Origin: Malassezia furfur
Taxonomy: Eukaryota
Strand: one strand, 5' to 3'
Assembly: GCA_052055015.1 (NCBI GenBank)
Contig: JBQJIT010000002.1
DNA: 64,000 nt
Within the stretch, counting starts at the first letter, position 1; every line of letters begins with the position of its first letter. A model generated the notes under the pieces. That model was not told the DNA's origin, ran no database searches, and worked only from the letters and a program-made list of their open reading frames with translations. This document shows, piece after piece, positions 11,691 to 30,180 of this stretch. Position numbers and translations under genes: made by a program.

Positions 11691-11999
11691 GGCCATCGTA
11701 CCTCGTTCCGACCCGATTCGCGGGGCGCATAAATTATTGGTCCACACGAGGCTATCGACCCTGGGACCAATGGAGTCAATAGATTCCAAACATCCCCATA
11801 CTGCCCTTTTAGGTCCGTATCGCACGTGCCGGTTTGTCCAAGACATTTTGGCCACCCCCATCCCGTGGGCGCACAGGGCATTGTGCGAGGCGACCTCTCA
11901 ACTGCCTGGTTTGCGGAGGCAGAAGCTTTTGCGTGAGGTGTCACTAAAGTTGGCAGTTTGAAGCACCTAGGTGCTTCTACCGCTGATCGTCTTGTGATC

Positions 12000-14216
12000 A
12001 TGTCCCATCCATCGGACGAGCTACGTCCGGCGCCTGCGCTCACTGAGGCACAGGACCTATACCTCCCATCGCAGCCCGAATCTCTCGCAAGTTCTTTTCA
12101 TTATGATCAATCCATGCAGCATTCTATGGAGGGCTCCCATATCATCGAGGAGCCTGCTGCACGCGCTGAAGGAGCGGACAAACTGGAACCGAGCCCAGAA
12201 TCGACCCCCGTCCAGGCCGAGCATCCAGCCATGGCGACACGGGCCAAAGGTTTTTCGAGCTTCTTCCACCGTTCTACGAACGATGTGCCTACGCCATCGT
12301 CGCAGGACGATGGGGCCAACGGTGCCCAGATGCCAAGACACCCCGCCGTGCGCAAGAAGAGCGAGCACTTTGGTCACCTGAACGACCTGCGCCGCTTCCT
12401 CCAAAATCATATTGGACATTCGACCTCGCGCGAAAAGACTTCTGGAAAAGGAGACAAGGCGAAGAACGAGGGCGGACATCGGGATAAGAAGTCGAACCGA
12501 AATGACTCGTCGAATCGCAGCATCCGGGGCACCGATTCCCCACCCTGGGGGATGAGCCAGGCCGGTATCAGCAAAAAGTATGGCAAGTGGGGCCGTACGT
12601 TGGGTACGGGTGCCGGGGGTACAGTCCGTATCATCCGGCGATCGAAAGATCATGCGCAGTTTGCCGTCAAAGAATTCCGTGAACGGCGCGCGGACGAGCC
12701 GGAGAAAGAGTACATCAAGAAAGTCACCGCCGAGTTCTGTATCGGCAGCACGCTGCACCATGTCAACATTATCAAAACGCTCGACATCATCAGCAACAGT
12801 GGACATTACTACGAGGTGATGGAGTACGCACCCAACGAACTGTTTGCGGTGGTCATGAGCGGAAAAATGGGATTCAACGAGATCAACTGTGTTTTCCGGC
12901 AAATTGTAGACGGTGTCGACTATCTGCACGGTCTAGGCCTAGCCCACCGCGATCTAAAGATTGACAATTGTGTTGTGACCGCGGACGGCATCGTGAAGAT
13001 CATCGACTTCGGCACAGCGACGGTATTCCAGTCACCAGGAAAGAGCAAGGTGCTTGCGAGCGGTATTGTGGGCTCTGATCCATACCTGGCGCCCGAGGTG
13101 CTCTCGTCGCAGACCTATGATGCGCGCTTGACCGATGTGTGGAGTTTGGCTATCGTTTACATGTGCATGATCATGCGGCGCTTCCCATGGAAGCTGCCCG
13201 ACACAGAGCTGGATCCCAACTTCCAGACGTTTGTCAATGCCCACCCCGAACTATGCCAAACGAGCGGTGTGCCGCTCGACGAGGCGCTCCAAACCGAAGC
13301 AGAGGTGGCGCAAGACGAGCACACATTTGATGCCTTGCTGAATCATGTGGAGAGCAGCGACAAATTCCAGTCGATGACGCACGACGACACGCCGCGTATT
13401 CCTACCGCGGCCGAGGCCGGATACCTGGTGGGCGGCACCGACTCGGCACCCCTCACACCCATTACCACCACGGAGCGGCGCACGGCTCGCGACGTACAGC
13501 CACCCGCGGAGGACAGCGGGCACGGCGCCGAGTTTGCTTACCGCAAACCCAACCCGGGACATGGCACACCGCAGCGTGCCATGACCTTCGAGGACCACGA
13601 CTCGGAGCAAGCGACACGCCCATCCTCTCCGGAGCGCCCTCCTGATACGCCAAACAACGAACCTGCTACGGGCGGCGTGCAGGGTACCCGGCCCGAGTCG
13701 CCGACGGAGGATCCGCAGCCGCGCGCGGCTGACAGTGTGTTCCGGCTGATCCCTATTGCGGCGCGCCCGGCGCTCTCGCGGATGCTCAAGCTCGATCCTG
13801 CGTTGCGCGCCACCCTGGGCGATCTTCTCCGGGGCCGAAGCTACGGGAGTGTCGACGGCCCCGTATCGGCGTCCGAGTATGCCAAACAGAAGGACCACGA
13901 CTTGGAGCGAAGCCCCCCGAGTCTGGCGCAGCAACCAACGGGCTATGTGGACTTATACGAGAATGACGAGGACCGCGGCGACGAGTGGCTCAAGTCGATC
14001 AACACCTGCTCACATTGGGTGGATGGTGTGCACAAGGCCCGGCCAACGCCGCAGGTCAAGCTGACGCGCGACGAGAATACGTTTGGTGACATGGGATTCA
14101 AGTCAATCTATGCTGTGGACGAGCGGTATGTGGAGCGCCCGCCATTGAACCACACGCACGTCACCGTGCATACCGACACCAAGCGGCGGCTGTTCCACCG
14201 CAAAGACAGTAGTTAG
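12000..14216 (+). CDS. SAT4: HAL-family Ser/Thr protein kinase (Sat4/Hal4-like)
   Basis: [34 protein letters not shown] (HAL family signature), [20 protein letters not shown]. Confidence 0.85.
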
Positions 14217-14594: not shown

Positions 14595-17435
14595 ATGATG
14601 AGCCGCGCGAATCAGGGACCCTACCTGGACCAGCAACAGGGCGCGTACACGCACCCGTCGCAGGTCCAGCAACAGTACGTGCAGTACGCTGCACACGACG
14701 GCCAGGGCATGTCGCGCTACCAGGACCCCGGCCACTCTAACTACGGCTACGGAGGGTACCAGGGACAGGAGAGCATCCCGATGCATACCTACGCGTCCAA
14801 CCAGCAGCAGGGCAACCCGTATGCGGAATCGAGCTACGCGCTGACTCCTGCGGGCAACGGTGCCTACGCCAACGAGCGCACCACGATGCTTAATCAGAAC
14901 AAGTCTGCTGCCGACCTGAGCCAGCAACTGTCGATTCAAAGCTCGCGCACGAACCTGGCCGGTGGCCCGTCGAACCAGAAGAATGTCGCCGATGCGGGCA
15001 TTCCTGCGGCGAGGCGCTCGGGCAAGAAGCGCCGCTGGTGGCTGTGGCCGCTGCTGGCGATCATTGCCATTTGTATCATCTTGGCAGCCGTGCTGGGCGG
15101 TGTACTGGGAAGCCGCGCGTCGAATGACGACAACAAGACGTCATCGTCGAAAGGTGCGAGCGGCATTGGCGCCCGTTCGCCGCAGAACAACATTACCCCT
15201 GTCTTCCCTCAGGAGCTGATTGACTCGGCGAACAAGGCGGCAGAGAACGGCAAGACCGACAAGCTAGGCTATGCGGGCACCGACCTGTACGCCAACCCCG
15301 TGTTCAACAGCGATGCGAGCACCGCGGCGCCCTCGTCGGGCGGCACGGTGGGTTCGTGCCAGGCGGACCCGTGGAAGGCGTCGAACAACGTCAATAACCC
15401 CCGCCCGGGCCACCCCCGCCTGATTGCGCCGCAGTATCTTTGGGACTGCCTCGAAAGTAAGATCCAGAACGACGCGTACCTCACTGTGTGGAACTACACC
15501 ATCATGCAGAACGCCTCGGCGTATGCCGACCAGGACCCTGTCACGTACGAAATTGACGGTGGGCTGACGCTTTCGGGTATTCTCGACGTCTCGCGTACTG
15601 TGCAGCAGCGTGTCAAGGCGTGGGCGTACGCGTGGCGCATGACGCGCGACACCAAGTGGCGCGACCGCACCATGAAGGAGCTGCAGGTCGCCGCGGGCAA
15701 CACGTCGCAGCCGTTTGGCGACCCGGCGACCCGTTGGGACCCTCAGCACTTTTTGGACACGGCTGAGATGTCGGCGGCGTACGCGTTTGCGTACGACTGG
15801 ATGTACGATGCCTGGAGCGACGAGGAGCGCGCCAACATCATTGACTGGATCGTGACATACGGACTGAACCCTGGCATGCAGCTCTACCAGTCGAACTCGG
15901 CGTGGTGGTCTCAGCCCGCGAGCGGTAATGGCAACTGGAACTGTGTCTCGAACGGCGGCATGATCTTTGCGGCCCTCGCGATCCAGGGTGATGCGCAGGG
16001 CAATGCGTCGGCGGTCGTGAAGCAGGTGTTTGACACGGCGCTCCCCAACGTCAAGGCCAACTGCATGCGCGGTGTCTACGAAGACGGTACGTGGAGCGAG
16101 ACGCCCAACTACTGGTACTTTGGTACCAACGCTCAGGCGCGTCTCCTCTCGGCGCTCGAGACGGCCACCGGCTCCGACCAGGGATTGATGGACCAGAACA
16201 AGAACTGGTACAAGACGGGCGACTTCCACATGTACGTTACTGGCAACGCCGGCATGTTCGCGTACGGCGACAATGGTCCGAACAAGTTTGGCACGACCGC
16301 CAACCAGCTCTTCCTGTATGCGCAAAAGTCGGGCAACCCGCGCTACGCGCTTTTCCAGCGTGACCGCGCGGACGCGTCGTCGGACCCGCTGAGCATGTTC
16401 TGGTACGACCCCTCCACGAAGGGCGCGTTCTGGAACGGCCTCGCGCTGGACCAGTGGTTCAACAACGATCAGGGCAACTGGTTCTCGATGCGCAGCTCGT
16501 GGACGGACATGACGGGCAACTATGTCGCGATGAAGGCCTCCAACGCCACCGGGCACCAGACTCACGGCGACGTCGACGCGGGTGACTTTGTGATCGACGC
16601 GCTCGGCACGCGCTGGGCGGGTGAGTACGGCAGCGACAACTACCTCTCCAAGAACTACTTTACGAGCGAGGATGACAACGCGGACCGTTGGAAGTATTTC
16701 CGCAAGGGTACCCAGGGCCAAAACACGCTCGTGATTGGCGAACAGAACCAGGTATCGAACTGCAAGCCGGCGAACAAGTTTGAGTCGTCTGGCGCCAAGC
16801 AGGACGCCACGCTGGACTACACGCCCGGACAGAGTGATGTGGCCTACTTTGTGTCGGACCTGAGCAGCTGCTACTCGCAAGGCGAGAACCAAGTGAAGCG
16901 CGGCATCCGCTTCCTCAACGGTCGCCGCCAGATCCTGCTTCAGGACGAGATCAAGTCGCAGGCGAACGCGACGCAGTGGCGTGTGCAGACCAACGCCACC
17001 GTCACTCTGTCGGAGGACAAGAAGACGGCCACGATGAAGATCAAGCAGGTCAACGACCCCAACGCCGGCACGGTCGGCACCAAGCAGCTTCCGTCGGAGG
17101 TGACCATGGTTGCGACTATCGTCCAGGGCCCCGACTCGGCGACGTTTGCGGTGCACCCGGCGTACAACAAGAAGGAAAACCCGAACTACCTGTACGGCCG
17201 CAACCAGGTGCCGCAGCAGGACACGTTCCCCGCCGGCGTCATCCAGCAACAGGGTGCGACCATTCCAGCCGAGATCCCCGACCCGGAGGTGAGCGTGCTC
17301 TCCATCGACCTGCCCGCGAACCAGGATATCAACCTGCAGGTGTGGTGGCAGCCGCAGTACTCGGAGCTGAACGACGCCGACAAGGCCACGCCCAAGAGCG
17401 TGCAGCTGGACGACTGGTCTCTGACGAGCCACTAA
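14595..17435 (+). CDS. Type II membrane-anchored heparinase II/III-like polysaccharide lyase
   Basis: Cytoplasmic Q/Y-rich N-terminus, basic KKRR plus one TM helix (~15037-15111), then HPRL, HFLDTAE, NGNWNCV, SETPNYWYFG, GHQTHGDVDAGDFVIDALGTRWA, QNTL motifs typical of (alpha/alpha)-toroid plus Hepar_II_III beta-sandwich lyases. Confidence 0.8.
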   Translation: MMSRANQGPYLDQQQGAYTHPSQVQQQYVQYAAHDGQGMSRYQDPGHSNYGYGGYQGQESIPMHTYASNQQQGNPYAESSYALTPAGNGAYANERTTMLNQNKSAADLSQQLSIQSSRTNLAGGPSNQKNVADAGIPAARRSGKKRRWWLWPLLAIIAICIILAAVLGGVLGSRASNDDNKTSSSKGASGIGARSPQNNITPVFPQELIDSANKAAENGKTDKLGYAGTDLYANPVFNSDASTAAPSSGGTVGSCQADPWKASNNVNNPRPGHPRLIAPQYLWDCLESKIQNDAYLTVWNYTIMQNASAYADQDPVTYEIDGGLTLSGILDVSRTVQQRVKAWAYAWRMTRDTKWRDRTMKELQVAAGNTSQPFGDPATRWDPQHFLDTAEMSAAYAFAYDWMYDAWSDEERANIIDWIVTYGLNPGMQLYQSNSAWWSQPASGNGNWNCVSNGGMIFAALAIQGDAQGNASAVVKQVFDTALPNVKANCMRGVYEDGTWSETPNYWYFGTNAQARLLSALETATGSDQGLMDQNKNWYKTGDFHMYVTGNAGMFAYGDNGPNKFGTTANQLFLYAQKSGNPRYALFQRDRADASSDPLSMFWYDPSTKGAFWNGLALDQWFNNDQGNWFSMRSSWTDMTGNYVAMKASNATGHQTHGDVDAGDFVIDALGTRWAGEYGSDNYLSKNYFTSEDDNADRWKYFRKGTQGQNTLVIGEQNQVSNCKPANKFESSGAKQDATLDYTPGQSDVAYFVSDLSSCYSQGENQVKRGIRFLNGRRQILLQDEIKSQANATQWRVQTNATVTLSEDKKTATMKIKQVNDPNAGTVGTKQLPSEVTMVATIVQGPDSATFAVHPAYNKKENPNYLYGRNQVPQQDTFPAGVIQQQGATIPAEIPDPEVSVLSIDLPANQDINLQVWWQPQYSELNDADKATPKSVQLDDWSLTSH

Positions 17436-17691
17436 ACACAATATAAACTGCTATGCCCCGTGTCTGCTCTCCTTCTCTTCCAGCAAACCTCGTAAGCACG
17501 TGTAGTAGTATAGACACTGTCTCTTACGCCTTTGCGCGTGCGGTGCATTCATTGCACAGCGTCTGGACCCTGGTGCGTCGCCCACGCACCTGCATCGCGG
17601 GGTGCGTACAGGTGCACCATATTATCTAATATCACCCGGCGAGACACCGTGCAAGCCATATCACCTTGTTTGAAACGGCTGGATGCACTCG

Positions 17692-17704
17692 AAAAGGCTT
17701 GGCA
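17692..17704 (-). promoter_or_regulatory. Candidate Rim101/PacC site (TGCCAAG) in the promoter of the NRPS-like gene
   Basis: AAAAGGCTTGGCA; reverse complement contains TGCCAAG; identical 13-mer occurs at 23911-23923 upstream of RIM101. Confidence 0.4.
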
Positions 17705-18039
17705 GAATCCGATTTGCTTTCACAATATGAATTCGCTTGTACACAAGCGGTTTGGCACATCATGGGACCTCCCGAGATACAACTGAACGGTGCAGGTCCG
17801 AGTGAGCACAGTCCAATCAGATGGATCGGGGCGGTGTATTTATAGGGTGTCTCGGCCGAAGTTCAGATTGCGAAGTCCGTAGGGGGTCGCCCCCTTACAG
17901 CGAGCCGCACAGCAGATACGCATAGCCACGAGGGTTTAATCGAGCGCGTCTCGGAAACTTTCTTGAAAGCGACCGGTTACGTTGCCCCTTTCACCAAGAC
18001 GTCCAAGTAGATTGCCGTGCGTCCCAGTCCTCTTGGAGA

Positions 18040-21000
18040 ATGGACTCGCCGCTCTCCTACGTGCTGGACCTCCCACCAGCGCCCCCGAATGGGTCGCTGG
18101 GTGACTATCTTGCCTCGCACGTCACCGAAAATGGTCGCTTCAATACACTGATTGACTGTTTGCCCTCGACAAACAAGCGGGCGCTCATCTCGCCGGACCT
18201 TGCGCGCCCGCCGCTGACGCACCGTATGCTCAAGCAGTTTGTCCAGTCGTTCGTGCTTCCCACCACGGGACGCTCCAAGCCCCTCCGCCCGAACGACCGC
18301 ATCATGATGGCGCTCCCCACCGGCCCAGAGAATGCCCTGGCGCTGCTGTGTGTTGCGTCCTACTATAACTGTGCGCCCGTCAACGCAAGCTGCACGGCCG
18401 AAGAGCTGCGCGATGATGCCCTGCGGCTCGGTGCTCGTGCCGTGATTTCCACGCGGGACGCCGTTGAGCGCCTGGATCTCGAGCAGCTCTACTACCAGCA
18501 CGGTCTCGAGATCTACTTTGTGGATGGCCGTCCGTCGGGCCCCGCGGGTCTGTTTGATATCTCGACGCTGGCCCAGGAGGTGCCGGGCAGCCGCTCGCAG
18601 TCGAACATGGTGCTCAACCAGCTCAACAACCAGTGTCTGGTGCTGCACACGTCGGGTACCTCGGGTACCAAGAAGGTGGTACCTTACACGCTCCGCCACC
18701 TGATTGTCGGTGCCGTCTGCGTTATTCAGAGCTGGAACTTGCACTCCGAACAGGTTGATATGAACATGATGCCTCTTTTCCATGTCGGTGGTATTGTGCG
18801 TAACCTGTGGGCGCCCGTGCTCTCGGGTGGCAGTACCATTCTTTGCAGCGGTTTCGACCCGAATGCGTGGTGGACGCTGGCGATGCAGCTTGGTGCGACG
18901 TGGTACTATGCCGCGCCGACGATGCACCACGCCATTCTGGCATCCAAGCCGGCGGACGTGATCCCCTCGAAGCAGCTCAAGATCTCCATGATCGCGAACG
19001 CTGCTGGTGGTCTACTGCCTTCGCTCGCCGTGGAGCTGCGCGAGACGTTCCAGTGTGTGGTGCTGCCCTCGTACGGTATGACGGAGTGCATGCCCATTGC
19101 GTCGCCACCCGTCGACTACCAGCTCGACCGTCCGGGCTGCTCGGGTGTCGCCTGTGGTCCCTACCTGAGCATCCGCGACCCGCTCAATATTGAACAGGAG
19201 CTTCCTGTTGGCAAGACGGGCAATGTCTGCGTTGCGGGCCTGCCGACGTTTGATGGTTACGAAGTCACGGTCGATGGTGTGAAGAAGATGGACACGTCGG
19301 TGTTTAGCTCTGAGGGCTGGTTTGATACGGGTGACTGTGGTCATATGGACAAGGACGGCTATTTGTACATTACCGGTCGTTCGAAGGAGATTATCAACAA
19401 GGGTGGTGAGGTCGTCTCGCCGTTTGAGGTCGAGGAGGCCATCATGCAGGCGTGCAAGGATCGCGTCAAACAGACGCTGGCGTTCTCGGTGGACCACAAG
19501 GTGCTCCAGGAAACGATTGGTGTGGTGATTGTCTCGCAGCCGAACCAGCCGCGCATTGGTCTGGCCGAGCTGCAAAACTCGCTGCGCAACCACTTGCACC
19601 CGTCCAAATGGCCCTTTGTCATTGTGTACATGGATGACCTGCCGAAGAACCAGGCGGGCAAGCCCCTGCGTATTAAGCTCGGTTCTCGTCTTGGCATCGG
19701 CCCTCTTTCGGACGATGTCCCCGCGCTCGACCGTCACTTTGAGGCGAAGACGCCCAGCAAGGATACGCCCCTCTCGCGCCCGATTCCCTGCTCACGCATC
19801 ACGGTCGACGTGCGTGCCGTGCAGCGTGCCTGCTACCGCATTCCCGGTGTGCTGGACGCCGCGGTGGTACAGCAGCGCGACCGTGCCCCGATGGCGTTTA
19901 TCCAGGTGCAGGAGGACTCCGGGTTTGATGCTGCGGACATTGACCGCGCGCTCGGCCAGATCCTGCATGGCTACGTGGTGCCGAACCCGCTGCACGTCTT
20001 CCGCCAGCCGCTGATCAAGACCAACGGGCAGTATGACTTTGAGGCCATGGAGAGCATTGTGCGCGAGCAGAATGCCGCGTCCATGTCGCAGACCTCGATT
20101 CTGGTGCGCGACATTATTGCCAAGCTGCTCGACCTCGACTCGGGTTCGATCACGGACGAATCCGACTTCTTCCTGCTCGGTGGCAACAGTCTGCTGCTCG
20201 GCCGTCTGATCTTCTTGATCCGTAAGGAGACGGACGTGAACCTGGAAGTCTCTTCGCTCTTTACCAACTCGACCGTGTCCCGCATGGCTGCGCTCATTGA
20301 CAAGCAGCGAGGGGAGCCCGGCGTTGACGACGACGAGGACCAAATGTACCAGATTGACGAAAAGGGCACGGGCCTCATGTCCTCGGTCAACCTCGCACAC
20401 AACTATGCTGTGGACGATGACCCCGCCTTTTCCTCGCACGGCCAAAAGCCGCGCAGCCAGACGCATCCGTTTGTGCTGTTCGTGCAGGCAATTCCCTTTT
20501 TCTTCTTCTACCCGCTCAAGGCGGCGTGGACCTGGACGATCATTCTGCGCGGCCTGGCCTTCTTTGCGTACTACATTGAAGACTCGCCCTGGCAGCGTCT
20601 CGGTGCGCTGCTCTCGTCGATTGTGATTGCGCGATTGAGCAGCCGTATCATTTGTCCCACGGCCGCGATTGCGTTCAAGTGGGTGGTGATTGGCCGCTAC
20701 CGGCCGGGCCGCTACCCCATGTGGAGCAATTACCACCTGCGCTGGTGGATCGTGAACCAGTCGCTCCGTGTCGGAGGGCGTGGTGTGTTTGCCATCACGC
20801 CCTGGCTGGAGAAGATGTACTACCGTCTGCTCGGCATGTCGATCGGCAAGGACGTCAAGATTGACTCGAACGCCAAGATTTACGAATGCGACCTGATCAC
20901 GATCCACGACCGCGCGTCGATCGACGCGTGCCGCATCCGTGGGTTCTGTGTGGAGCGTGACGGCTACTTCCGCTTGGAGCCGATCGTGATTGGACGCGAC

Positions 21001-22743
21001 TGTGTGGTGAACACGTACACCCAAATCTCGCCGGGTGCACGCCTCGCCGACGGCACCGTCTGGGGACCGCAGTCGTCGTCGCACGAGCCACCGGCGCCAG
21101 ACTCGTACGCGGCGTACAACCGCAATGCGACGCCGCAGCCCAACTTCTTTGTCAAGATGTTTGTTGGGTACCCGATCGTGATACTGGTGTGGATCATTTC
21201 CTACGTGCCCTGGTTTGCTGCGCTGATGCTCCTGCTGTTGACGCCGTTCAACTTTGCGAACCAGGACAGTCTGGAGAGTGTGATTGCGTGGTATGCATAC
21301 CCGCATCGTATCGGCTACCACTTCCTTGCGCGCATTGTGCGCAAGACGCTCCCGCCGCTCGTCAACCTGATTGTGGGTATCATTGTCAAGCGTCTGCTCG
21401 GCTTCAACCGCGCCGGTTCGATGCGCAATGCGTCGCAGATTGCGCTGCTCCGCCGCTGGGTCACTTCCCGGCTGCTGAGCCAGCGCAAGCTGAACGATGC
21501 GTTCCAGATCCTCGGCACGCACTACGAGATGGTTTCGGTGGTGTACCGTGCGATGGGCGCGCGCATTGGCAAGCGTGTGTATTGGCCGGGTTCGGGCATC
21601 TACTGCCCCGACCCCGAGCTGCTTGAGGTCGGCGACGATGTTGTGTTTGGCTCGCGTTCCGAGGTGTTTACCTCGGACTCGATCAGCTTCGACCCCGTGC
21701 GCATCGGCCGTGGTGCCATGATTGCGGACCGTGTGGTGCTCTTGCCCGGCACGACCGTCGGCCGGCGGTGTGTGATGGGTTCAGGTGCGCTGTCGCGCCG
21801 CGGCGGCAACTACGAGGAGCGCTCGGTGTGGATGGGCCAGAAGAACGGTGAGGCGGTCAGCTTTGGCAAGTCGCAGGCGCCGGCCGATGACGAAGACATG
21901 AGTGAGGACAGCACGATTACTCCGTTCGGCCGCGCTTACTACAAGCGCGAGGCCAACTTCTTCGTGTTCCCCTACATCATGATTGTTGCCATTCACGTCT
22001 TCTCGCAGGTGATTACCGCCGCGTACTGGGCCGGCGGCTTTGCCGCGACCGTGGTGGCCCTGCACCGCATCTTTGAAGTGTACGACGACCGCTCCGACTG
22101 GCTGTTTATGGACCACTGGTACCGCCCCGCATTTATCTATCTCGCGATTGCCATCTTCTTTGTGGTGATTCTACCGGGACAGGCGCTGATTGCGATCGGC
22201 TGGGTGATTGGCACCAAGTGGGCCATTATCGGGCGCCGTCGCGAGGGCCGCTACAACTGGGACATGAGCAGCTACTGCCAGCGCTGGCAGCTGCACCTGG
22301 TGCTGCAAAAGCCCACGATGCAAGGATTTGGTGGGCATATTATGCAAAACATATCGGGCACGGCGTTTGTGGTGTGGTACCTCCGCGCGCTCGGCGCCCG
22401 CATCGGCAAGGACTGCGCCATCTGGGCGGGCGGCAAACCCTCGTTGCAGCTCACCGAGCCTGACCTGGTCACGATGGGCGACCGCGTCTCGCTCGACGAC
22501 TGCTCGGTCGTGGCGCACATCAACTCGCGTGGTCAATTCAGCCTGAACCGCCTGCGCATTGGCGATGCCTGTGCGATGCGCACAGGCAGTCGTCTCTTGT
22601 CGGGTGCGAGCATGGAGCCGCACTCAATGCTGCTGGAGCACACGCTGGTTGCCTCGGGTGAGATTACCGAGAGCTGGGCCGTGTACGGCGGCTGGCCGGC
22701 ACGCCGCCTGAAGCTGCGCCGCGGCCAAGATGCCAAGGCGTGA
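18040..22743 (+). CDS. NRPS-like membrane enzyme, Pls/poly-amino-acid-synthetase architecture (A - degenerate A-sub - T - TM/beta-helix x3)
   Basis: A-domain motifs LHTSGTSGTKKV, MPLFHVGG, SYGMTE, FDTGD, ITGRSKEIINKGGE, LPKNQAGK; carrier motif DFFLLGGNSL (Ser at 20188-20190); about six TM segments and three RxxGxxIG hexapeptide domains (20821, 21544, 22381). Confidence 0.9.
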   Translation: MDSPLSYVLDLPPAPPNGSLGDYLASHVTENGRFNTLIDCLPSTNKRALISPDLARPPLTHRMLKQFVQSFVLPTTGRSKPLRPNDRIMMALPTGPENALALLCVASYYNCAPVNASCTAEELRDDALRLGARAVISTRDAVERLDLEQLYYQHGLEIYFVDGRPSGPAGLFDISTLAQEVPGSRSQSNMVLNQLNNQCLVLHTSGTSGTKKVVPYTLRHLIVGAVCVIQSWNLHSEQVDMNMMPLFHVGGIVRNLWAPVLSGGSTILCSGFDPNAWWTLAMQLGATWYYAAPTMHHAILASKPADVIPSKQLKISMIANAAGGLLPSLAVELRETFQCVVLPSYGMTECMPIASPPVDYQLDRPGCSGVACGPYLSIRDPLNIEQELPVGKTGNVCVAGLPTFDGYEVTVDGVKKMDTSVFSSEGWFDTGDCGHMDKDGYLYITGRSKEIINKGGEVVSPFEVEEAIMQACKDRVKQTLAFSVDHKVLQETIGVVIVSQPNQPRIGLAELQNSLRNHLHPSKWPFVIVYMDDLPKNQAGKPLRIKLGSRLGIGPLSDDVPALDRHFEAKTPSKDTPLSRPIPCSRITVDVRAVQRACYRIPGVLDAAVVQQRDRAPMAFIQVQEDSGFDAADIDRALGQILHGYVVPNPLHVFRQPLIKTNGQYDFEAMESIVREQNAASMSQTSILVRDIIAKLLDLDSGSITDESDFFLLGGNSLLLGRLIFLIRKETDVNLEVSSLFTNSTVSRMAALIDKQRGEPGVDDDEDQMYQIDEKGTGLMSSVNLAHNYAVDDDPAFSSHGQKPRSQTHPFVLFVQAIPFFFFYPLKAAWTWTIILRGLAFFAYYIEDSPWQRLGALLSSIVIARLSSRIICPTAAIAFKWVVIGRYRPGRYPMWSNYHLRWWIVNQSLRVGGRGVFAITPWLEKMYYRLLGMSIGKDVKIDSNAKIYECDLITIHDRASIDACRIRGFCVERDGYFRLEPIVIGRDCVVNTYTQISPGARLADGTVWGPQSSSHEPPAPDSYAAYNRNATPQPNFFVKMFVGYPIVILVWIISYVPWFAALMLLLLTPFNFANQDSLESVIAWYAYPHRIGYHFLARIVRKTLPPLVNLIVGIIVKRLLGFNRAGSMRNASQIALLRRWVTSRLLSQRKLNDAFQILGTHYEMVSVVYRAMGARIGKRVYWPGSGIYCPDPELLEVGDDVVFGSRSEVFTSDSISFDPVRIGRGAMIADRVVLLPGTTVGRRCVMGSGALSRRGGNYEERSVWMGQKNGEAVSFGKSQAPADDEDMSEDSTITPFGRAYYKREANFFVFPYIMIVAIHVFSQVITAAYWAGGFAATVVALHRIFEVYDDRSDWLFMDHWYRPAFIYLAIAIFFVVILPGQALIAIGWVIGTKWAIIGRRREGRYNWDMSSYCQRWQLHLVLQKPTMQGFGGHIMQNISGTAFVVWYLRALGARIGKDCAIWAGGKPSLQLTEPDLVTMGDRVSLDDCSVVAHINSRGQFSLNRLRIGDACAMRTGSRLLSGASMEPHSMLLEHTLVASGEITESWAVYGGWPARRLKLRRGQDAKA

Positions 22744-22894
22744 GCAAGGTCGGCAGGTGCCTGGACGCGCGGGCGTGCCTCGCATTGTCACATTATTTGA
22801 TAAATAGCTCATGTTTAGTAAAATATGCTGTGGCCTTTTTTTCCCATCACGTGGGCTTCTCGTCGCGCGCTGCCGACCGCCCAGCGCGAGCACC

Positions 22895-23428
22895 ATGGAT
22901 CCGGAGGAAGCGGGTATGAACGACGAGGGGTATGTAGCCAGGAGCCTGTGTACCGCAGGGCAGCATGCTAACTCATGTGCAGCTTTTACGATGATGAGCC
23001 CGACTTCAATGACGTGGACGGCGACGACGTGTTCGATGAGAATGCAGGCGAGGACGACGCCGAGGCTGGCGACGACGCCGTCGTGCACTCGAGTGCGGGC
23101 GGCCCGGTCCCGTCGGGTGGCGACGCTGGTGGACAGCCCAATGCGGAGCGTATCACCACGCCGTACATGACCAAGTACGAAAAGGCACGCATTCTCGGCA
23201 CGCGCGCACTCCAGATCAGGTACGTCCCCCGGCGCCGCGCGCGAACAGCTACTGACACTACTCAGCATGAATGCACCCGTGCTCGTGCCTACCGAGGGCG
23301 AGATTGACCCGCTGGCGATCGCGCAAAAGGAACTGGTCGCGAAGAAAATTCCGTTGCTCGTGCGGCGCTACCTGCCGGACGGCAGCTTTGAGGACTGGAG
23401 CGTCGCCGAGCTGATCACGTCTGACTAG
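22895..23428 (+). CDS. RPB6: RNA polymerase I/II/III shared subunit RPB6 (RPO26); two introns
   Basis: Acidic N-terminus, [31 protein letters not shown]...[19 protein letters not shown]. Confidence 0.97.
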
Positions 23429-23772: not shown

Positions 23773-23996
23773 GCCAAGCCTGTTGCCAAGACTGGCTCCG
23801 TTTGCATAGCCCTGTCCGCAGCGTGGTGATCCAGCCTACTAGGTGGATGCCACGTGCGCTTGCCGGGTCCGCGTGCCAACAAGACTGGCAGTTTGTTCCT
23901 CTTCGAATTAAAAAGGCTTGGCACATCCGGCCGGTCGATCCGCGCAACCTCGGGTATTGTTGCGCTGGTGCGTCATGGTACAAGCGAGTAGCCAAG
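23773..23996. promoter_or_regulatory. Cluster of GCCAAG (PacC/Rim101 consensus GCCARG) sites around the RIM101 start
   Basis: GCCAAG at 23773 (+), TGCCAAG at 23784 (+), TGCCAAG at 23917-23923 (-), GCCAAG at 23991 (+, just inside the CDS). Confidence 0.6.
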
Positions 23997-25897
23997 AGGC
24001 ACCGCACACGAAGCCGGAAGCGACGTCGACGCCTTTGGACTCGTCTGCCGTCGCATCGTCCGGCGCAGAGCGTCCATCAGAGATCCGGTGCGAGTGGCGT
24101 GGGTGCGGCGCCGTCTTTGACGGGGCCGAGGTGTTGTACCGGCACCTGTGTGACGAGCATGTGGGTCGGAACAGCAAGAACAACCTGTGCCTTTCATGCC
24201 ACTGGGGCCAGTGCCAGGCGAGCTATGCGAAGCGCGACCATATCACAAGCCATTTGCGGATTCACATCCCGATGAAGCCGTTTGCGTGCAACGTGTGTGG
24301 AAAGAGTTTCAAGCGCTCGCAGGACCTCAAGAAGCATGGGCGTACGCATGCGTCACCTTCGGCAAGCGACGACCGGCATAGCGACGACGGCGTTGCGCCC
24401 GAGCCGAGCGTGCCGCAGATCGTCTCACACGGCACGCCGCCGGCACAGGTGCCGCTGTACCCCAGCCTGCCCGGGCTGCTCTCGCCGCGCTCACGCGAGG
24501 AGGCGCTTGTTGCGACGCCCAGCTATCGCTCGCACTCCTCTCGCGAGTCAGCGTCGCCCGCCTCGTCGTTCTCACCGTCGCAGGACACCTCGCCGCGTCC
24601 CTACTTCCCAATGCCCCCCGATGCGGAGCTACCGCAGATGCGCTACGCTGGCGCCCCCAGCGCACCCGGCGCGCTGTACCCCCCCGTACCCAAGACTGCG
24701 CACGGCATGCCCGACGACGCAAGCTACCCCGACGCGTCGGTGCGCGGCTATGCGCCGCCCCGTGCCGAGCCTGGCTGGAACGCGGGGGTAAAACGGCCAC
24801 GGCGCATGGTTGATGACTTTTGGGACGATGTGCGCCGCAAAAAGGTCGCGCCCGTGTACGACGACGAGATGGCCGACCGCCTGAACCAGCTCTGGAACCC
24901 GAACAGCGCGCAGGACCCTGGCGTGCTCGACCTCTTCCTGGGCGACTCGCTGAGTGCGCTTGGTGCGTATGGTGCACCGGATGCGACGTCCATGCCCGGC
25001 GCACACGGCTCGCCGTACGACGCCACGTATACGCGCGCGCAGCCGGTGTCGCAGCTGCCGCAGCCGCGTGCAGCGACGCCCAACCTCGTCGACGTCAACA
25101 CCTGGCTGCTCCACCTCGGGATGAACATGGCGCGCGCGTCGCCGCCGCCGCCGCCGCAAATGCCCGTCTCGCAGGCCGAGGCGCGCATGCCGCCGATCGA
25201 CTTTGCACAGTCGCTCCATGCGCTCGGCCTCGGGCACATCCCCGGCATCGAGAGTTTGTACACGGACGTGGCGATGGGCGGCGCGCCGGGGGTGCCGCCG
25301 ATGCGCAGCTTCAACGAGTACGTCCCGCCGCAGCTGGCCGTACGCGAGACGGGCAGCCAGCCGACGTACCGCCACGTGGAGCCGCTGACGCGCGCGCCTG
25401 TCGCGACGCCGACGATGCGCCGCCGAGCGCCCTCGTTCTCCAAAGAGGCCATGGACGTCGACGAACCGCCGGCGCGGCCCGTGTATCCCCGCTTGCCCTC
25501 GGATGCGCGTGCGAGCCCGATGGACGAGCGCAGCGGCAGTGCGTCGCCAACGCGGCGCGACGCGCACGTCTCGCGCGAGACGCGCGAGCGCCACCTGAGC
25601 CTGGTGCTCAATGTGCTCCTTGCGCTGAACAAGCGGCAGCGCATCGACCCGGCGTCGGGCCGCGTTGCGCCGATGCATGGCGATGCACGCCCCGCGCCGC
25701 GGCCGTCGCTCATGCCGCCGCCGCCCATGTGGCGCAGCGAGAGCCGCGAGCGTGCGCTGCCCAAGCCCGCGCTGTACGACATGTCGGCGCGGCGCACCTC
25801 GCTGCGTGTGCCCAACAAAGACGAACCGAAGGCGCCTGTGCGCCCTGGCGCTTTGCCAAGCATTGCGCAGCTGTTATCAGACGTGGATATGAACTAG
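23975..25897 (+). CDS. RIM101: pH-response C2H2 transcription factor PacC/Rim101
   Basis: Three zinc fingers CEWRGC...HLCDEHVGR..NNLCLSCHWGQC...KRDHITSHLRIHIPMKPFACNVCGKSFKRSQDLKKH; YPxL motifs at 24458 and 25484. Confidence 0.93.
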   Translation: MVQASSQEAPHTKPEATSTPLDSSAVASSGAERPSEIRCEWRGCGAVFDGAEVLYRHLCDEHVGRNSKNNLCLSCHWGQCQASYAKRDHITSHLRIHIPMKPFACNVCGKSFKRSQDLKKHGRTHASPSASDDRHSDDGVAPEPSVPQIVSHGTPPAQVPLYPSLPGLLSPRSREEALVATPSYRSHSSRESASPASSFSPSQDTSPRPYFPMPPDAELPQMRYAGAPSAPGALYPPVPKTAHGMPDDASYPDASVRGYAPPRAEPGWNAGVKRPRRMVDDFWDDVRRKKVAPVYDDEMADRLNQLWNPNSAQDPGVLDLFLGDSLSALGAYGAPDATSMPGAHGSPYDATYTRAQPVSQLPQPRAATPNLVDVNTWLLHLGMNMARASPPPPPQMPVSQAEARMPPIDFAQSLHALGLGHIPGIESLYTDVAMGGAPGVPPMRSFNEYVPPQLAVRETGSQPTYRHVEPLTRAPVATPTMRRRAPSFSKEAMDVDEPPARPVYPRLPSDARASPMDERSGSASPTRRDAHVSRETRERHLSLVLNVLLALNKRQRIDPASGRVAPMHGDARPAPRPSLMPPPPMWRSESRERALPKPALYDMSARRTSLRVPNKDEPKAPVRPGALPSIAQLLSDVDMN

Positions 25898-28800
25898 ACA
25901 TTGTGTGTTATAGGAGTTTGTGAACCAGACATTGGAACCAGTGACACTGCGTCGGGAAGCGCGGCCCGCGCGTCGCGCGCGCCAAACGCGCTGCGCACGA
26001 GCCGCGCGGCGGTGTGCACCCGCGCCGCGTGTGCGGCGGCGTCATGCGCTGCGCGGCACGCACGGGCGTGCGCCACGGCCGCCTCAACGAGCGGGGCGGG
26101 CAGCCCCGCGAGGCCTGCGACGTACACGCCAAGCGACGCGGGCGCGAGGCCGGCGCGCAGTGTGTGCAGGAACACGACCTCGGTGTGATCGCCGTGCGTG
26201 TCGAGGCGCGTTGCCATGTGCAAGTTGGCGATGCGCCCGGGCAGCTCGTCGGCGAGCGCGCCGAGTGCCGCATAGTGCGTGATAAACAGCACCTTCGGCC
26301 GCGCCTCGGGCGCCAGCAGCGTTCGTAGCACCGCGTACGCCAGCGCCGCGCCGTCAAATGTCGACGTCCCGCGCCCAAACTCGTCCAGCAAAAGCAACGA
26401 GCGCGGCGTCGCCGTGCGCAGCAGGTGCGCCGTCTCCTCGGCCTCCACCAAGAAGGTCGACTTGCCGCGCGCGAGGTGGTCGTGTGCACCCATCCGCGTG
26501 AGGATGGCGTCGTGGCACGGCATCCGTGCCTCGGCGCACGGGACAAATGACCCGATCTGCGCGAGGATGAGCACGAGCGCCAGTGCTCGCACCGTGCTCG
26601 ACTTGCCGCCCATGTTGGCGCCGGTCAGGAGCACGGCACGGGGATGAGCGCCGCCCAACGTCACGTCGTTTGGCACGTACGGCAGTGGGCGCAGTGCCTC
26701 GAGCACGGGATGCCGAAACCCACGCAGCACCACGGCATCCTCGTCCGTGAGCGTCGGGCGCGTATAGCCCGGCAACGACGCGACGTCTGCCAGTGACGTG
26801 AGCGCATCAAGCTCGGCGACCGCCCGCACCACGCGGCGCATCGCACCATAGTCGCGTGCCACGCATTGTACAAAATCGCGCCACGCCTCCCGACCCGCCT
26901 CGGCGAGCTGCTCACGGTGCTGCTCTCGCAGCCGCGCGAGGCGCAGCACCGTCGGCGTGTGGAAACGCACCACAGCTTTGGTGCTGTTTACGCGCACCCA
27001 GTCGGCGGGCGTCTTGCTCGCCTCACTCGCGCGCACTTCGATGAGGTTCTCCAGACCAGAGACACTCGTATACTGCAGTTTGGGGCGCCGTAGCACGACG
27101 CGCAGCTCGTCGAGGTGCGCAGCCAGCTGCGCCTCGTCATCCGCGAGCTGCTGCTTCCAGGCGGCAATTGCGGGGTAGCGGGCTGCATCCGTGAACAGCT
27201 CCGTCTTGGCATTCTTGCGCGCGTCGCTTACGCGGATCGCCGCAAGGTGCGTCGCAACGCACTCGCGCGCCGTTGACAGCGCCGCAAGCGTTGCATCGAG
27301 CTGCACTGCACCCGAGTGTACCTCGCCCGCGTCACGGAACGAAAACTCGCGCGTGATACGGTGCAGGCTGAGCAGCACCGTCGCCAACTCGGTCGGCTCC
27401 ACGAGGCCGTACGCGACTCGCGCCAGGCCCCGCGCCAGGTCGGGCAGACGCGTGAGCATAGCGACGGCCTGGTGCAGCACTGCGAGTCGCCGCTCGCGCA
27501 GCACATCCACGGCGTCCACCCGGCGCGCAATCTGTGCTGCGTCCAGCAGCGGGCGCCGCAGCCATTGCCGCAGCAGGCGCTTGCCCATCGGCGTGCGGCA
27601 ATGGTCCAGATGCCACAGCAAGCTGCCATACACTTGCCCGTCGGTTGCATTGTACATCAGCTCGAGATTGCGCAGCGTGTGTCCACTTAGGAGCATACAG
27701 GTGCGGTCCTGGAACGCGGCATAATTGCCAGCCTCGGCAAACGCCCATGTCAGGCCATACGCGGACAGGTAGCGCACGAGCTGTGCGCACGCACACTGCA
27801 CATGGATATCGAGCGACATGAGCAGGGGAAGCACTTGCGCATCCCATGCAGCGGATGCCGCATCCGCCAGCGCCGTGGCTGCCGCCGAGGTTTCCACCGC
27901 CTCGACCTCTTCAACGCGCGCGGGGCGCTCGCCAGGTAGCTGCGCCGCATACGCGCGTAGCACACGCTCCGTCTGCACACTCGTACCGCGTGCTAGCACC
28001 AACTCTTTGGGAGCCAAGTGTGCAAGCCTCGTTTCCAGCTCCTGTGGTCAGCACCCCACCTACGCTGCGCATCGCATCGTCCACAAACACGTCATACGTC
28101 ACTGACGCTGTCGCAATGTCGACCGCCATCACACCGATTCGCATGCGTGTTGCACCGACGGCAGTCTCGGAGAGCGACACAAGGACCTGCTCGCCGCCCA
28201 GCTCTTCGGGCGACTGCACGGCACCGATGTCGTCGATCCACGTACTCGCCGTATAGAGCGCTGTGAGCGCACGCGTAAACGGTTTGTTGGCATTTTCCGT
28301 CGCCGCCTTCAGTGCGCGCGTTTCTGTCTGACGGCACACGCCCACTTTGTAGCCGGCCGCGACAAGGCGCTTGACGTGCACCGCCAAACGAGGCACCGGA
28401 ATCATGGCCGCCTGTAGGTTCTTTTCGGGAAAGCACGCCTGCGTGAGCATCGCACGTACAATGTTTAGCACCTGGCTCGCAATCTGTGCGTCTTCCTGGT
28501 AAAACTTCATTTTGTAGCCCACTTCGACGAGCAGAAGCACGCCGGGGTTCTCGTTTTTGAGCTGCAGAATCTGCCTCTCGAGCGGCGTGTATTTGACCGG
28601 ACCCGTGCGCACCGTCGGCTGGACAACCTGCGCAAATGAGTGCCGAGCATGGATCGCGTGCGGCGCCGCGTCATTTGGGTCGAAACGGTGCACCGCGAGG
28701 GGGTTGGCGTGCGCCTCGGCGCGTGGAGAGGACGCGGCAGTCGGCGTTGGCGCATCGTGCGTTGCCGGCTCCTCGCTTGACATGGGCACTTCGGCCGCAG

Positions 28801-28909
28801 CACCATCACCATCGCCTTCTTCCGCGCGTTCCCCTTGCTCTGTGCGTGCCCGCTTGGGTGCACGCTCGCCCCCAAAGAAGGCATGCAGCGACACCTGCTT
28901 GGGAGGCAT
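25894..28909 (-). CDS. MSH3: DNA mismatch repair protein MSH3; micro-introns near 28439-28459 and ~28040-28065
   Basis: N-terminal PIP box QVSLHAFF, YTPLERQ, LLVEVGYKMKF (GYK is the Msh3 form), Walker A TGANMGGKS, STFLVE, LLDEFGRGTSTFDG, LFITHY. Confidence 0.93.
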
Positions 28910-28938
28910 CGCGCACGGTCGTCGCCACGTGGGAGTCC

Positions 28939-28971
28939 ACGCGACGCGTCGCGCATGCATCGCTGGACGCG
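28939..28971. promoter_or_regulatory. MCB-like elements in the 87-bp bidirectional MSH3/UNG1 promoter
   Basis: 14-bp palindrome CGCGACGCGTCGCG (28940-28953) centred on ACGCGT, plus ACGCG at 28939 and 28967. Confidence 0.55.
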
Positions 28972-28996
28972 ATCGGCTCTGCGCGGTGTACGAGCG

Positions 28997-30180
28997 ATGT
29001 CCATCACGAGTCCCGTTGCGAAACGTGCGCGCACGATCCATGCCAAGGACGTGGCGCCAAGCACACGCGACGAGTTTGATGAATTTGACGTCCCGGAAGA
29101 GGACCTTCTACGCGCGGTCGAATCCGCCGAGGCGCGTCCAACGGAACGCGACGCGACGCGCCCCGCGTCATCCCCGGCGGACAAGGCGCCCGGCGCTACG
29201 GCACGCATGCCACCAACACCACCATCTAGCTCACCCGCTTCGGGCACGCCACCGGTCGCCGACCGGTCCATTCCGCCCGCTCCCGCCTACGACTTGCCGT
29301 ACGCTGGCACGCCCGACGATCCGCTCGCCCTAGAGCGCACGACGATGAACAAGGAATGGTTTGATCGATTGGAACCGTCAATGCGCCGCGACAGTTTTGC
29401 GAGCCTCAAGCAGTTCCTGGACGGCGAGAAGCGGGCAGGGAAAACCATTTTCCCTCCCCCGCAGCTCATTCACAGCTGGTCGCGCACGACCCCGCTCGAA
29501 AAGGTCAAGGTCGTCATCATTGGCCAGGATCCGTACCACCAGCCCGGCCAGGCATGTGGTCACTCGTTCTCTGTACCGATGGGCAAGGCAGTCCCCGCGA
29601 GTCTGCAGAATATCTACAAGGAGCTCAAGGCTGAGTACCCCGACTTTGTCCCGCCGACACACGGGTAGGTGATCGCAACGCTCACGCAGCTGTCTGAATG
29701 GATGGGCGAACCAGGGTGTATTACTGCTCAATGCGTGTTTGGTACGTTGTGCTACTGACCCAGACCGTCAATGCGGGCAATGCAGGCTCGCACCACAACC
29801 GCGGTTGGGAGCCGTTTACGCGCGACATTCTCAAGGCAATCGCCAAGAACGCCGCAGGAGCAACGGCCAGCAAAGCAGGAGGTCCGCTCGATGCGATGCT
29901 GCAGGGAAAGACGCCGACCAAGGCCGCGGGACAACCCGTCGTCTTCCTCGCTTGGGGGCAGCCGGCAGCACGAACACTTGCCGAGGCAGGCATCACCGAG
30001 GTTCGTGAGCATCTCACGCAGAAATCGCCCAACGTGCTTATTCTACGCTCGCCGCATCCCTCGCCACTGAGTGCTCACCGCGGGTTTCTGGGGAACGGGC
30101 ACTTTGCCAAGGCGAATGCCTGGTTAGAAGACAAGGCTCGGTATGGGCCGGGCGGGGGCATTCGATGGGACGCGTTATAG
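28997..30180 (+). CDS. UNG1: Uracil-DNA glycosylase; micro-introns 29665-29689, 29742-29763 and probably 30001-30021
   Basis: VKVVIIGQDPYH, VPASLQNIYKEL, WANQGVLLLNA, VFLAWG, HPSPLSA motifs. Confidence 0.96.

Follow-up and report, generated by a model that had tools for sequence, protein, structure and literature searches.

The gene at 18040..22743 of the 64,000-nucleotide stretch of Malassezia furfur DNA analysed here (contig JBQJIT010000002.1, assembly GCA_052055015.1; the window) encodes a membrane-anchored protein resembling non-ribosomal peptide synthetases (NRPS), and is apparently the ortholog of a published enzyme type, the polymalate (PMA) synthetase (PMAS) of Aureobasidium, not a new system. 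An earlier note on this DNA, made from its letters, had proposed a candidate new polymer or acylation system, without naming a product; this did not hold, since the protein belongs to a fungus-wide family whose Aureobasidium member matches the polymalate synthetase reported in 2020. The polyester option that the note had also raised does have a precedent in the accounts of that enzyme, and it stands as a known type of system. We lean, if only slightly, towards the reading that the Malassezia protein is itself of the polymalate-synthetase type, in which case L-malate would be activated, loaded on Ser717 and polymerised to an ester-linked chain at the membrane.

The fungal family and its Aureobasidium member

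The open reading frame (ORF) starts with ATG on the forward strand and runs uninterrupted and without introns through 1567 codons and a stop. All motifs cited in the earlier note were found at their positions in the intact frame: MPLFHVGG (18769), DFFLLGGNSL (20164), KWVVIGRYRPGRYPMWS (20677), YRLLGMSIG (20821), YRAMGARIG (21544), KWAIIGRR (22216) and LRALGARIG (22381). A protein search yielded 826 proteins at E ≤ 0.001 among 7999 scored, of which the best 120 were listed. Among these listed matches, the closest is a 'putative NRPS-like protein' of Malassezia brasiliensis (1567 residues, 96% identity, 100% coverage), and identity amounts to 77-89% in other Malassezia, about 70% in other Ustilaginomycotina and 54-59% in Agaricomycetes. 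Three antisense ORFs inside the gene (576, 317 and 241 residues) and an ORF at 22624-23268 on the reverse strand matched no Pfam family; they were rejected as genes and taken as chance ORFs of GC-rich DNA.

When residues 800-1567 were compared with 1.84 billion representatives, 2526 matches were obtained at E ≤ 1e-3 and 342 at E ≤ 1e-30. Eight of ten full-length representatives carry a cluster name, and the seven that name a species are all fungi: Zopfia, Hortaea, Erysiphe, Geopyxis and Ophiocordyceps (Ascomycota), Polychytrium (Chytridiomycota) and Halteromyces (Mucoromycota); the eighth bears a JGI descriptive label only. With Basidiomycota included, the family is present in these four phyla, which is every fungal phylum sampled. 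Its members are publicly labelled 'acetyl-CoA synthetase-like', 'NRPS-like', 'oxalate--CoA ligase' or 'peroxisomal-coenzyme A synthetase'. Among the 150 best representatives, 47 have at least 1300 residues; by a strict pattern, 33 of the 47 keep H[VI]GG and 34 keep YGxTEC[ML]P. Ten of the 19 representatives missing a motif were scanned with Pfam, giving AMP-binding and/or AMP-binding_C in nine, PP-binding in all ten and Hexapep (E ≤ 1e-5) in eight, and we read them as divergent or mis-modelled members, not as another type.

A tree of the terminal domains (FastTree, LG+gamma, 768 columns, 63 fungal sequences with no row dropped) was rooted on two bacterial proteins. It contains a Basidiomycota clade of 17 tips (support 1.0) and, as its sister, a mostly ascomycete clade of 27 tips that includes Aureobasidium (0.999); the two are joined at 0.958, and Mucoromycota, a chytrid and unnamed sequences lie outside both. 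Of the separate phylogenies that the earlier note had suggested for the adenylation and C-terminal parts, this C-terminal tree places Malassezia with the Basidiomycota, sister to the clade that contains Aureobasidium. The branching agrees with the phylogeny of the Dikarya, and its pattern is that of one orthologous gene, not of separate paralogs.

Some members stand apart by placement or by an added domain. The chytrid sequences P0377 (Geranomyces) and P0381 (Thoreauomyces) nest in the Ascomycota clade beside the lichen fungus Bathelium (support 0.924), unlike the chytrid Polychytrium, which groups with early-diverging sequences; their placement suggests horizontal transfer, an old paralog or contamination. 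P0025, a protein of 1395 residues labelled as from the fern Adiantum nelumboides, shares 69% identity with the Malassezia protein; its most likely source is fungal DNA within a plant assembly. Many Agaricales members carry a C3HC4 RING finger after the last terminal domain (residues 1559-1597 in the Mycena sp. protein P0053; zf-C3HC4_2, E 9.9e-10), RING families also appear in the precomputed lists of many Mycena proteins, and the Malassezia protein is without a RING.

A search with the Hortaea member led to an Aureobasidium pullulans protein of 1690 residues (P0372), which is 39% identical to the Malassezia protein over 1610 columns (1101 bits) and colinear with it at full length. The 90% cluster of P0372 has 126 members, and the best 15 of the 126, those listed, are all from Aureobasidium, including proteins of 1688 residues from A. 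melanogenum. P0372 has the same Pfam domains and the same seven acyl-pocket residues as the Malassezia protein, position 322 being Ala in both. The Malassezia protein is about 120 residues shorter, and lacks both the longer N-terminal extension of P0372 and its Ser/Thr-rich insert between C2 and the third helix pair. Judging from sister clades and full-length homology, it is an ortholog of P0372.

The Aureobasidium PMAS (QHD40385.1; Wang et al. 2020, Int J Biol Macromol 156:1053) is drawn on here through the accounts in PMC11286673, PMC9210645, PMC11905612 and PMC9909216. In the relevant passages, these describe an NRPS with adenylation (A)-like, thiolation (T) and condensation (C)-like domains, six membrane helices and no thioesterase, encoded by a 5049-bp gene (about 1682 residues). 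According to the scheme proposed there, malate is first adenylated and then passed to the T domain, and the C-like domain joins the units through ester bonds, giving a polyester of L-malate. Reviews call PMAS the key enzyme of malic acid polymerisation and state that its deletion lowers PMA, and an independent PMAS deletion in A. pullulans BL06 is reported to give a product described as PMA-free. The PMAS ortholog of A. pullulans NRRL 62031 is reported to lie in an antiSMASH 'NRPS-like' region, separate from a 'NAPAA' region; 'NRPS-like' is also the funannotate-style name of family members. The Malassezia protein fits the description of PMAS in its A-like, T and C-like domains, its six helices, its lack of a thioesterase and its size class of about 1700 residues. 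From length, domain description and antiSMASH class, we infer that P0372 is the published protein QHD40385.1.

Domain architecture and conserved residues

Pfam recognised AMP-binding, AMP-binding_C, PP-binding and Hexapep regions (Table 1), and no condensation or thioesterase family was found in the scan of the 1567-residue protein. The domain order is adenylation, carrier, and then three times a pair of membrane helices followed by a left-handed beta-helix domain (C1, C2, C3). This layout (A-T-6TM-C1C2C3, with TM for transmembrane helices), which the earlier note had read from the letters, is borne out by Pfam, by hydropathy (six hydrophobic stretches arranged as three pairs), by an AlphaFold2 (AF2) model and by an internal triple repeat. 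The model of residues 800-1567, for which the 63-sequence alignment served as input, has a predicted local distance difference score (pLDDT) of 93.1 and a predicted TM-score (pTM) of 0.92, and shows a beta-rich domain after each helix pair. The three modules are homologous to one another (1 versus 3, E 5e-15, 32% identity over 167 residues; 1 versus 2, E 2e-5; 2 versus 3, E 1e-5).

A Foldseek comparison of the 768-residue model with the PDB gave 11 matches at E ≤ 1e-3, all of which are left-handed beta-helix acetyltransferases (maltose, galactoside and serine O-acetyltransferases among them) or a design built on one. No solved Pls-type terminal domain was found in the PDB, either by sequence search or by Foldseek with the whole model. 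For C1, the best stretch of the TIGR02353 model covers residues 816-1013, and there are weak PDB sequence matches to the beta-helices of GlmU and chloramphenicol acetyltransferase; C2 matches galactoside and maltose O-acetyltransferases in sequence, and 3srt, 1ocx and 3nz2 by Foldseek; the best PDB sequence match of C3 is the hexapeptide transferase 3ixc (7.8e-5). C1, C2 and C3 thus have the fold of beta-helix O-acyltransferases, with weak similarity (target-normalised TM-score ≤ 0.55, sequence E ≥ 7.8e-5), but the Malassezia protein differs from these enzymes in carrying three non-identical beta-helices in one chain with an anchor of six membrane helices, and in its predicted acyl donor, a carrier-bound thioester instead of acetyl-CoA. 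In Pls-type enzymes, the three beta-helices are described as packed like the trimers of hexapeptide-type transferases (PMC10522769, in the part concerned). E1473 and H1493 of C3 are invariant in 19 fungal sequences and align with a Glu and a His of two bacterial Pls/PosA proteins.

The relation of the C-terminal half to the Pls/PosA enzymes (epsilon-poly-L-lysine and delta-poly-L-ornithine synthetases), which the earlier note had supposed, was confirmed by profile and by translated search. Like AMP-binding and PP-binding, the Pls/PosA terminal-domain model TIGR02353 was matched (E 7.8e-55, 186.5 bits in four stretches; 189.4 bits with residues 800-1567 alone), under its curated cut-off of 423.1 bits; P0372 is likewise under it, both proteins lying at 186-199 bits. 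In a tblastn search of plasmid records with residues 800-1567, 61 records were matched (best E 1e-34), and 30 of the 61 cover at least 80% of the query at one place, all with 23-25% identity. The aligned span on bacterial Pls/PosA genes is about 90% of the C-terminal half, and 'Pls/PosA family non-ribosomal peptide synthetase' is the name given to those matched plasmid genes that are annotated. When the terminal domains of six fungal and two bacterial proteins were aligned, each of the three modules showed shared motifs; KW..GR...G.YP.W, RALGA.[IV]G, TE.DL and the His of C3 are found on both the fungal and the bacterial side. On these comparisons, the homology is real but distant.

The likeness to Pls/PosA extends to the organisation of a single chain with A domain, T domain and a terminal domain of about 730 residues, in which six helices form three pairs, each followed by a soluble tandem domain, without condensation or thioesterase domains. 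The published AlphaFold model of PosA, as described in PMC10522769, consists of six bent helices and three beta-helices in a roughly three-fold symmetric arrangement, and its secondary-structure order is the same as in our model. Of the three features that define Pls/PosA, the Malassezia protein has this layout and fails the other two, the TIGR02353 cut-off and an amino-acid A domain with its Asp. It further differs in having an A domain of acyl-CoA-ligase instead of amino-acid type, an extra vestigial A C-terminal subdomain, a predicted ester bond, and a predicted product that is a polyanion instead of a polycation. Its gene lies among housekeeping genes, whereas an M1 peptidase gene stands beside pls in Kitasatospora (L002) and a phosphopantetheinyl transferase gene is the neighbour in Sphingomonas (L001). 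An argument from charge, by which an anionic product would call for more basic C domains, was dropped, as the net charges of the fungal (+11 to +36) and the bacterial proteins (+6 and +22) overlap.

The adenylation domain is of a different kind from that of Pls/PosA. In a PDB sequence search, the top matches are the oxalyl-CoA synthetases 6qjz (4.9e-50), 5ie0 (8.2e-45) and 8aff (2.5e-41), followed by malonyl-CoA synthetases at about 1e-29, and the first NRPS-named chain appears only at 4e-17; the kinship with Pcs60 and oxalyl-CoA synthetases seen in the earlier note is thus confirmed. These oxalyl-CoA synthetases (plant AAE3, Lathyrus OCS 6qjz, yeast Pcs60 8aff) and the malonyl-CoA synthetases (MatB) are the best relatives of residues 56-545, with which they share the ANL core motifs, the gating His248 and the catalytic Lys541; they are, however, free-standing soluble enzymes with CoA as acceptor, whereas the acceptor of the Malassezia enzyme is predicted to be its fused carrier domain. 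The best NCBIfam A-domain models for both the Malassezia protein and P0372 are acyl-CoA ligases, and TIGR01733 (amino-acid adenylation, cut-off 317.4) is missing from the 25 best NCBIfam families of the Malassezia protein, a list that goes down to 91.9 bits. The core motifs comprise the P-loop TSGTSGTKK (204-212), H248-V249-G250-G251, N320-A321-A322 and Y345-G346-M347-T348-E349-C350-M351-P352.

The earlier note had taken an 'FH' pair in the A4 region as typical of acyl-CoA ligases and as lacking the Asp of the NRPS 'FD' pair. In ANL structure alignments, that pair presumably equals H248-V249, and not F247-H248. The region reads F-H-V-G-G, with no Asp at H248 or V249, so that this part of the claim stands. 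The Phe does not carry it: position 247 is F in 7/19, N in 6/19, Y in 5/19 and H in 1/19 fungal sequences, and the invariant part of the stretch is H248-(V/I)-G250-G251. A MAFFT alignment of the A4 stretch with the two bacterial Pls/PosA proteins was not clean. In amino-acid A domains, an Asp binds the alpha-amino group of the substrate (PMC10522769, in the passage on A domains). The note's suggestion that the substrate is not an alpha-amino acid is therefore supported by an acyl-CoA-ligase-type A domain without this Asp, and by the absence of TIGR01733 among the best families.

The oxalate pocket of AtAAE3 is formed by Val215-His216, Cys288-Ser289, Ala313-Met314, His319 and Lys500, of which Ser289 and His319 contact oxalate and are conserved only among oxalyl-CoA synthetases, as stated in the pocket description of PMC8905533. 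HMMER alignments with 6qjz and 5ie0 place Val249-Gly250, Ala321-Ala322, Gly346-Met347, Pro352 and Lys541 at the corresponding positions of the Malassezia protein. The oxalate-contact feature is absent, Ser289 being replaced by Ala322 and His319 by Pro352; in addition, His216 is replaced by Gly250 and Ala313 by Gly346. Three of these replacements (His to Gly, Ala to Gly and Ser to Ala) are predicted to enlarge the acyl pocket.

In an alignment of 19 fungal sequences that spans four phyla and includes Aureobasidium, the P-loop, H248, G250, G251, R254, N320, A321, Y345-G346, T348-E349-C350, P352, K541 and S717 are invariant in all 19, and so are six of the seven mapped acyl-pocket positions. The pocket is thus nearly constant across the family, and this constancy suggests one shared substrate. 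Arg254 (codon 18799-18801, in HVGGIVRN), where oxalyl-CoA synthetases have Ala or Gly, is a candidate ligand of the substrate's distal carboxylate.

About 140 residues separate the A and carrier domains, and the descriptions of PMAS drawn on here make no mention of them in the passages concerned. In residues 550-690, AMP-binding_C is the sole Pfam match, and is under threshold (E 0.0075). A model of residues 550-770 (AF2, pLDDT 93.6) was aligned by Foldseek to the adenylation and peptidyl carrier protein (PCP) parts of NRPS structures over 170-215 columns. With VIA-align, residues 587-678 superpose on the C-terminal subdomains of adenylate-forming enzymes: 5n9w (Z 12.8, root-mean-square deviation (rmsd) 2.0 over 87 residues), 4eat (Z 12.8), 3dlp (Z 12.7) and 5ie3 (Z 12.7, rmsd 2.2 over 89). 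We thus describe a second, degenerate subdomain on the grounds of structure comparison, and not of sequence alone; by hhalign, the second subdomain matches the first only weakly (36% probability over 33 columns), and the chytrid homolog P0125 has two AMP-binding_C stretches by Pfam. The A10 Lys is absent from the second subdomain in two other aligned fungal sequences as well. This subdomain before the carrier is a new detail beyond the published descriptions, and it could be what is left of the original A domain of a Pls-type ancestor that acquired a complete acid-CoA ligase ahead of it.

The carrier domain itself is well defined: residues 682-759 of the model superpose on the PCP 4mrt_C with Z 14.6 and rmsd 0.8 over 73 residues (VIA-align). 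Ser717, the predicted phosphopantetheine-attachment residue in its GGxS motif, is invariant in 19/19 and in 63/63 aligned sequences.

Proposed reaction and alternative readings

In the reaction that we propose, the N-terminal acyl-CoA-ligase-like domain would adenylate a small hydroxy acid with two carboxyl groups, L-malate being the most likely one and its beta-carboxyl the site, and the activated acid would be moved as a thioester onto the phosphopantetheine arm of Ser717. In the terminal part, with its three beta-helix domains on six helices, the malyl thioester would be attacked by the hydroxyl of free malate or of the growing chain, for which His1493 of C3 is the candidate base; this step is modelled on the attack of the amine in Pls. 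Release or export at the membrane would follow without a thioesterase, and the product would be a polyanionic polyester, either poly(beta-L-malate) or a short oligomer. Besides the published precedent, the choice of a dicarboxylate is favoured by the fact that the nearest solved relatives of the A domain activate small dicarboxylates.

Several points weigh against this proposal. The identity of 54-59% between Malassezia and mushrooms may mean a more basic role than polymer secretion. The motifs for Crz1 reported for the PMAS promoter of Aureobasidium (GNGGCKCA and CAGCCAC) are absent from 17436-18039, upstream of the Malassezia gene; across the whole window they have 55 and 15 matches, no more than in shuffles. 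Pocket position 322 varies, with Ala in 15/19, Gly in 3/19 and Ser in 1/19 sequences. The identity of P0372 with QHD40385.1 is an assignment by size and description (1685-1690 versus about 1682 residues), the accession being absent among the 15 of 126 cluster members listed, and neither QHD40385.1 nor gene g3625 appears in the supplement of the one paper found to give QHD40385.1. In the experiments as related in PMC9210645, PMAS complementation restored only about a third of PMA and deletion left growth unaffected, and the Aureobasidium assignment, as told in the reviews, rests on gene deletion, not on an in-vitro substrate assay. Finally, a search of open-access papers and bioRxiv gave no report of a Malassezia product and no link of the family to polymalate outside Aureobasidium, the one genus for which polymalate synthetase is discussed there; among the titles and abstracts listed there for NRPS-like genes of Malassezia or for hexapeptide-bearing NRPS-like enzymes of fungi, none concerns this family.

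The alternative that deserves most attention, and that we hold as a tentative one, is that the same machinery works on another acid (malonate, tartronate, succinate, a fumarate-derived or other hydroxy acid) or on a membrane or wall acceptor, the polymalate overproduction of Aureobasidium being a special case. It would agree with a family much wider than reported polymalate production (Penicillium cyclopium, Physarum and Aureobasidium are the producers named in the passage of PMC11905612 concerned), with the high conservation between Malassezia and Agaricomycetes and with housekeeping neighbours, as expected of a core function; moreover, the literature considered, in the parts drawn on, gives no family member whose substrate was fixed by assay. 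It is opposed by the pocket, whose six invariant residues and shared Ala322 in Malassezia and Aureobasidium point to one shared substrate, by two independent Aureobasidium deletions that are reported to affect PMA, and by the free homopolymers that Pls-type relatives are described as making (PMC10522769, same part). A more specific version, which we regard as rather unlikely, is that the conserved job is to make a membrane- or wall-associated ester-linked product not yet described, such as an oligo-acid anchor or an acylated acceptor, and not to secrete free polymalate; polymalate in Aureobasidium would then be derived, and Malassezia would display the product on human skin.

Activation of oxalate by a Pcs60/AAE3-type ligase, with oxalyl loaded on the carrier for transfer or detoxification, is suggested by the best solved relatives (6qjz, 5ie0, 8aff) and by the annotation of several homologs as 'Oxalate--CoA ligase' or 'peroxisomal-coenzyme A synthetase'. 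We nevertheless consider it very improbable: because the oxalate-contact residues are replaced, with P352 and also G250 invariant in the family, the enzyme does not appear to be an oxalate ligase, and oxalate, having neither a hydroxyl nor an amino group, could not be polymerised by this chemistry. Least probable of all, to the point of being nearly dismissed, is an ordinary cationic poly-amino-acid synthetase that makes epsilon-poly-lysine or a related polymer, as bacterial Pls/PosA or fungal Epls do. Such an enzyme would have the same A-T-6TM-C1C2C3 layout and detectable TIGR02353 homology, but the 186.5 bits of the Malassezia protein compare with 773 and 800 bits (772.6 and 799.6) for the Sphingomonas and Kitasatospora proteins; these two also pass the TIGR01733 cut-off with 419 and 349 bits, respectively, while that model is missing from the best 25 families here, and neither H248 nor V249 is the Asp needed for an alpha-amino group. 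The polymalate-type reaction thus remains the reading that we prefer, by a little.

Gene neighbourhood and significance

The genes that flank the synthetase gene are housekeeping genes and form no biosynthetic cluster (Table 1). The upstream neighbour carries a heparinase II/III domain, that is, a polysaccharide-lyase-type domain, which is unusual beside a polymer synthetase. Directly downstream lies the gene for RPB6, with GT...AG-like introns near 22931-22982 and 23221-23266. The two ORFs of the MutS homolog are consistent with an intron or a frame change between them.

Table 1. Features of the synthetase gene and its surroundings, by position in the window
Feature	Position	Strand	Basis or detail
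Protein kinase gene	11958-14216		upstream
946-residue protein, heparinase II/III-like C-terminal domain	14595-17435	+	only Pfam match, E 1.9e-8
Upstream intergenic region (promoter)	17436..18039	+	no ORF with a family match; TATA-like 'tatttatagg' near 17840
Whole synthetase gene	18040..22743	+	single ORF; colinear at 100% coverage with M. brasiliensis protein
Adenylation core, acyl-CoA-ligase type (residues 82-407)	18283..19260	+	Pfam AMP-binding, E 2.5e-36
First adenylation C-terminal subdomain (residues 463-541), predicted catalytic Lys541 in LPKNQAGKP	19426..19662	+	Pfam AMP-binding_C
Second, degenerate adenylation C-terminal subdomain (residues 587-678), no A10 Lys (TNGQYD)	19798..20073	+	structure superposition, weak Pfam
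Carrier (thiolation) domain (residues 689-753), Ser717 codon 20188-20190 in DFFLLGGNSL	20104..20298	+	Pfam PP-binding, E 1.7e-12
Membrane helix pair 1 (residues 810-845, 850-883)	20467..20688	+	hydropathy; AF2 helices H11-46, H51-84
C1: juxtamembrane GRYRPGRYPMW, then YYRLLGMSIG, left-handed beta-helix (residues 885-1030)	20692..21129	+	TIGR02353, internal repeat
Membrane helix pair 2 (residues 1036-1065, 1088-1120)	21145..21399	+	hydropathy; AF2 helices H237-266, H289-321
C2: YRAMGARIGKR, beta-helix with Hexapep match (residues 1121-1300)	21400..21939	+	Pfam Hexapep 1220-1250, E 4.9e-12
Membrane helix pair 3 (residues 1312-1348, 1362-1397)	21973..22230	+	hydropathy; AF2 helices H513-549, H563-598
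C3: GRRREGRYNWD, LRALGARIGKD, TEPDL, beta-helix with His1493 (codon 22516-22518) in VVAHINSRG (residues 1398-1567)	22231..22740	+	conservation
RNA polymerase subunit RPB6 (RPABC2), small intron-containing gene	22896-23428	+	last exon 23267-23428, E 1.2e-21 to 3h0g_F
C2H2 zinc-finger protein	23918-25897		downstream
MutS homolog, mismatch repair	25894-29041	-	two ORFs: domains III-V 25894-28017, domain I 27911-29041

Three points are new compared with the literature searched: orthology across the fungi, a largely invariant pocket and a vestigial A subdomain. The last of these points to a possible origin of the family, in which a Pls-type synthetase acquired a complete acid-CoA ligase at its front and retained only the tail of its own A domain; if true, nature would here have swapped the activation domain of a Pls-type enzyme. 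Because of the orthology and the largely invariant acid pocket, polyester synthesis of the polymalate type may be an old capacity that is widespread among fungi, a yeast of human skin being one of them. Titles in the reference list of PMC9210645 present poly-L-malate as inhibiting protease and DNA polymerase alpha. If the proposal is true, a skin commensal that makes such a protease- and DNA polymerase alpha-inhibiting polymer would be worth a look.

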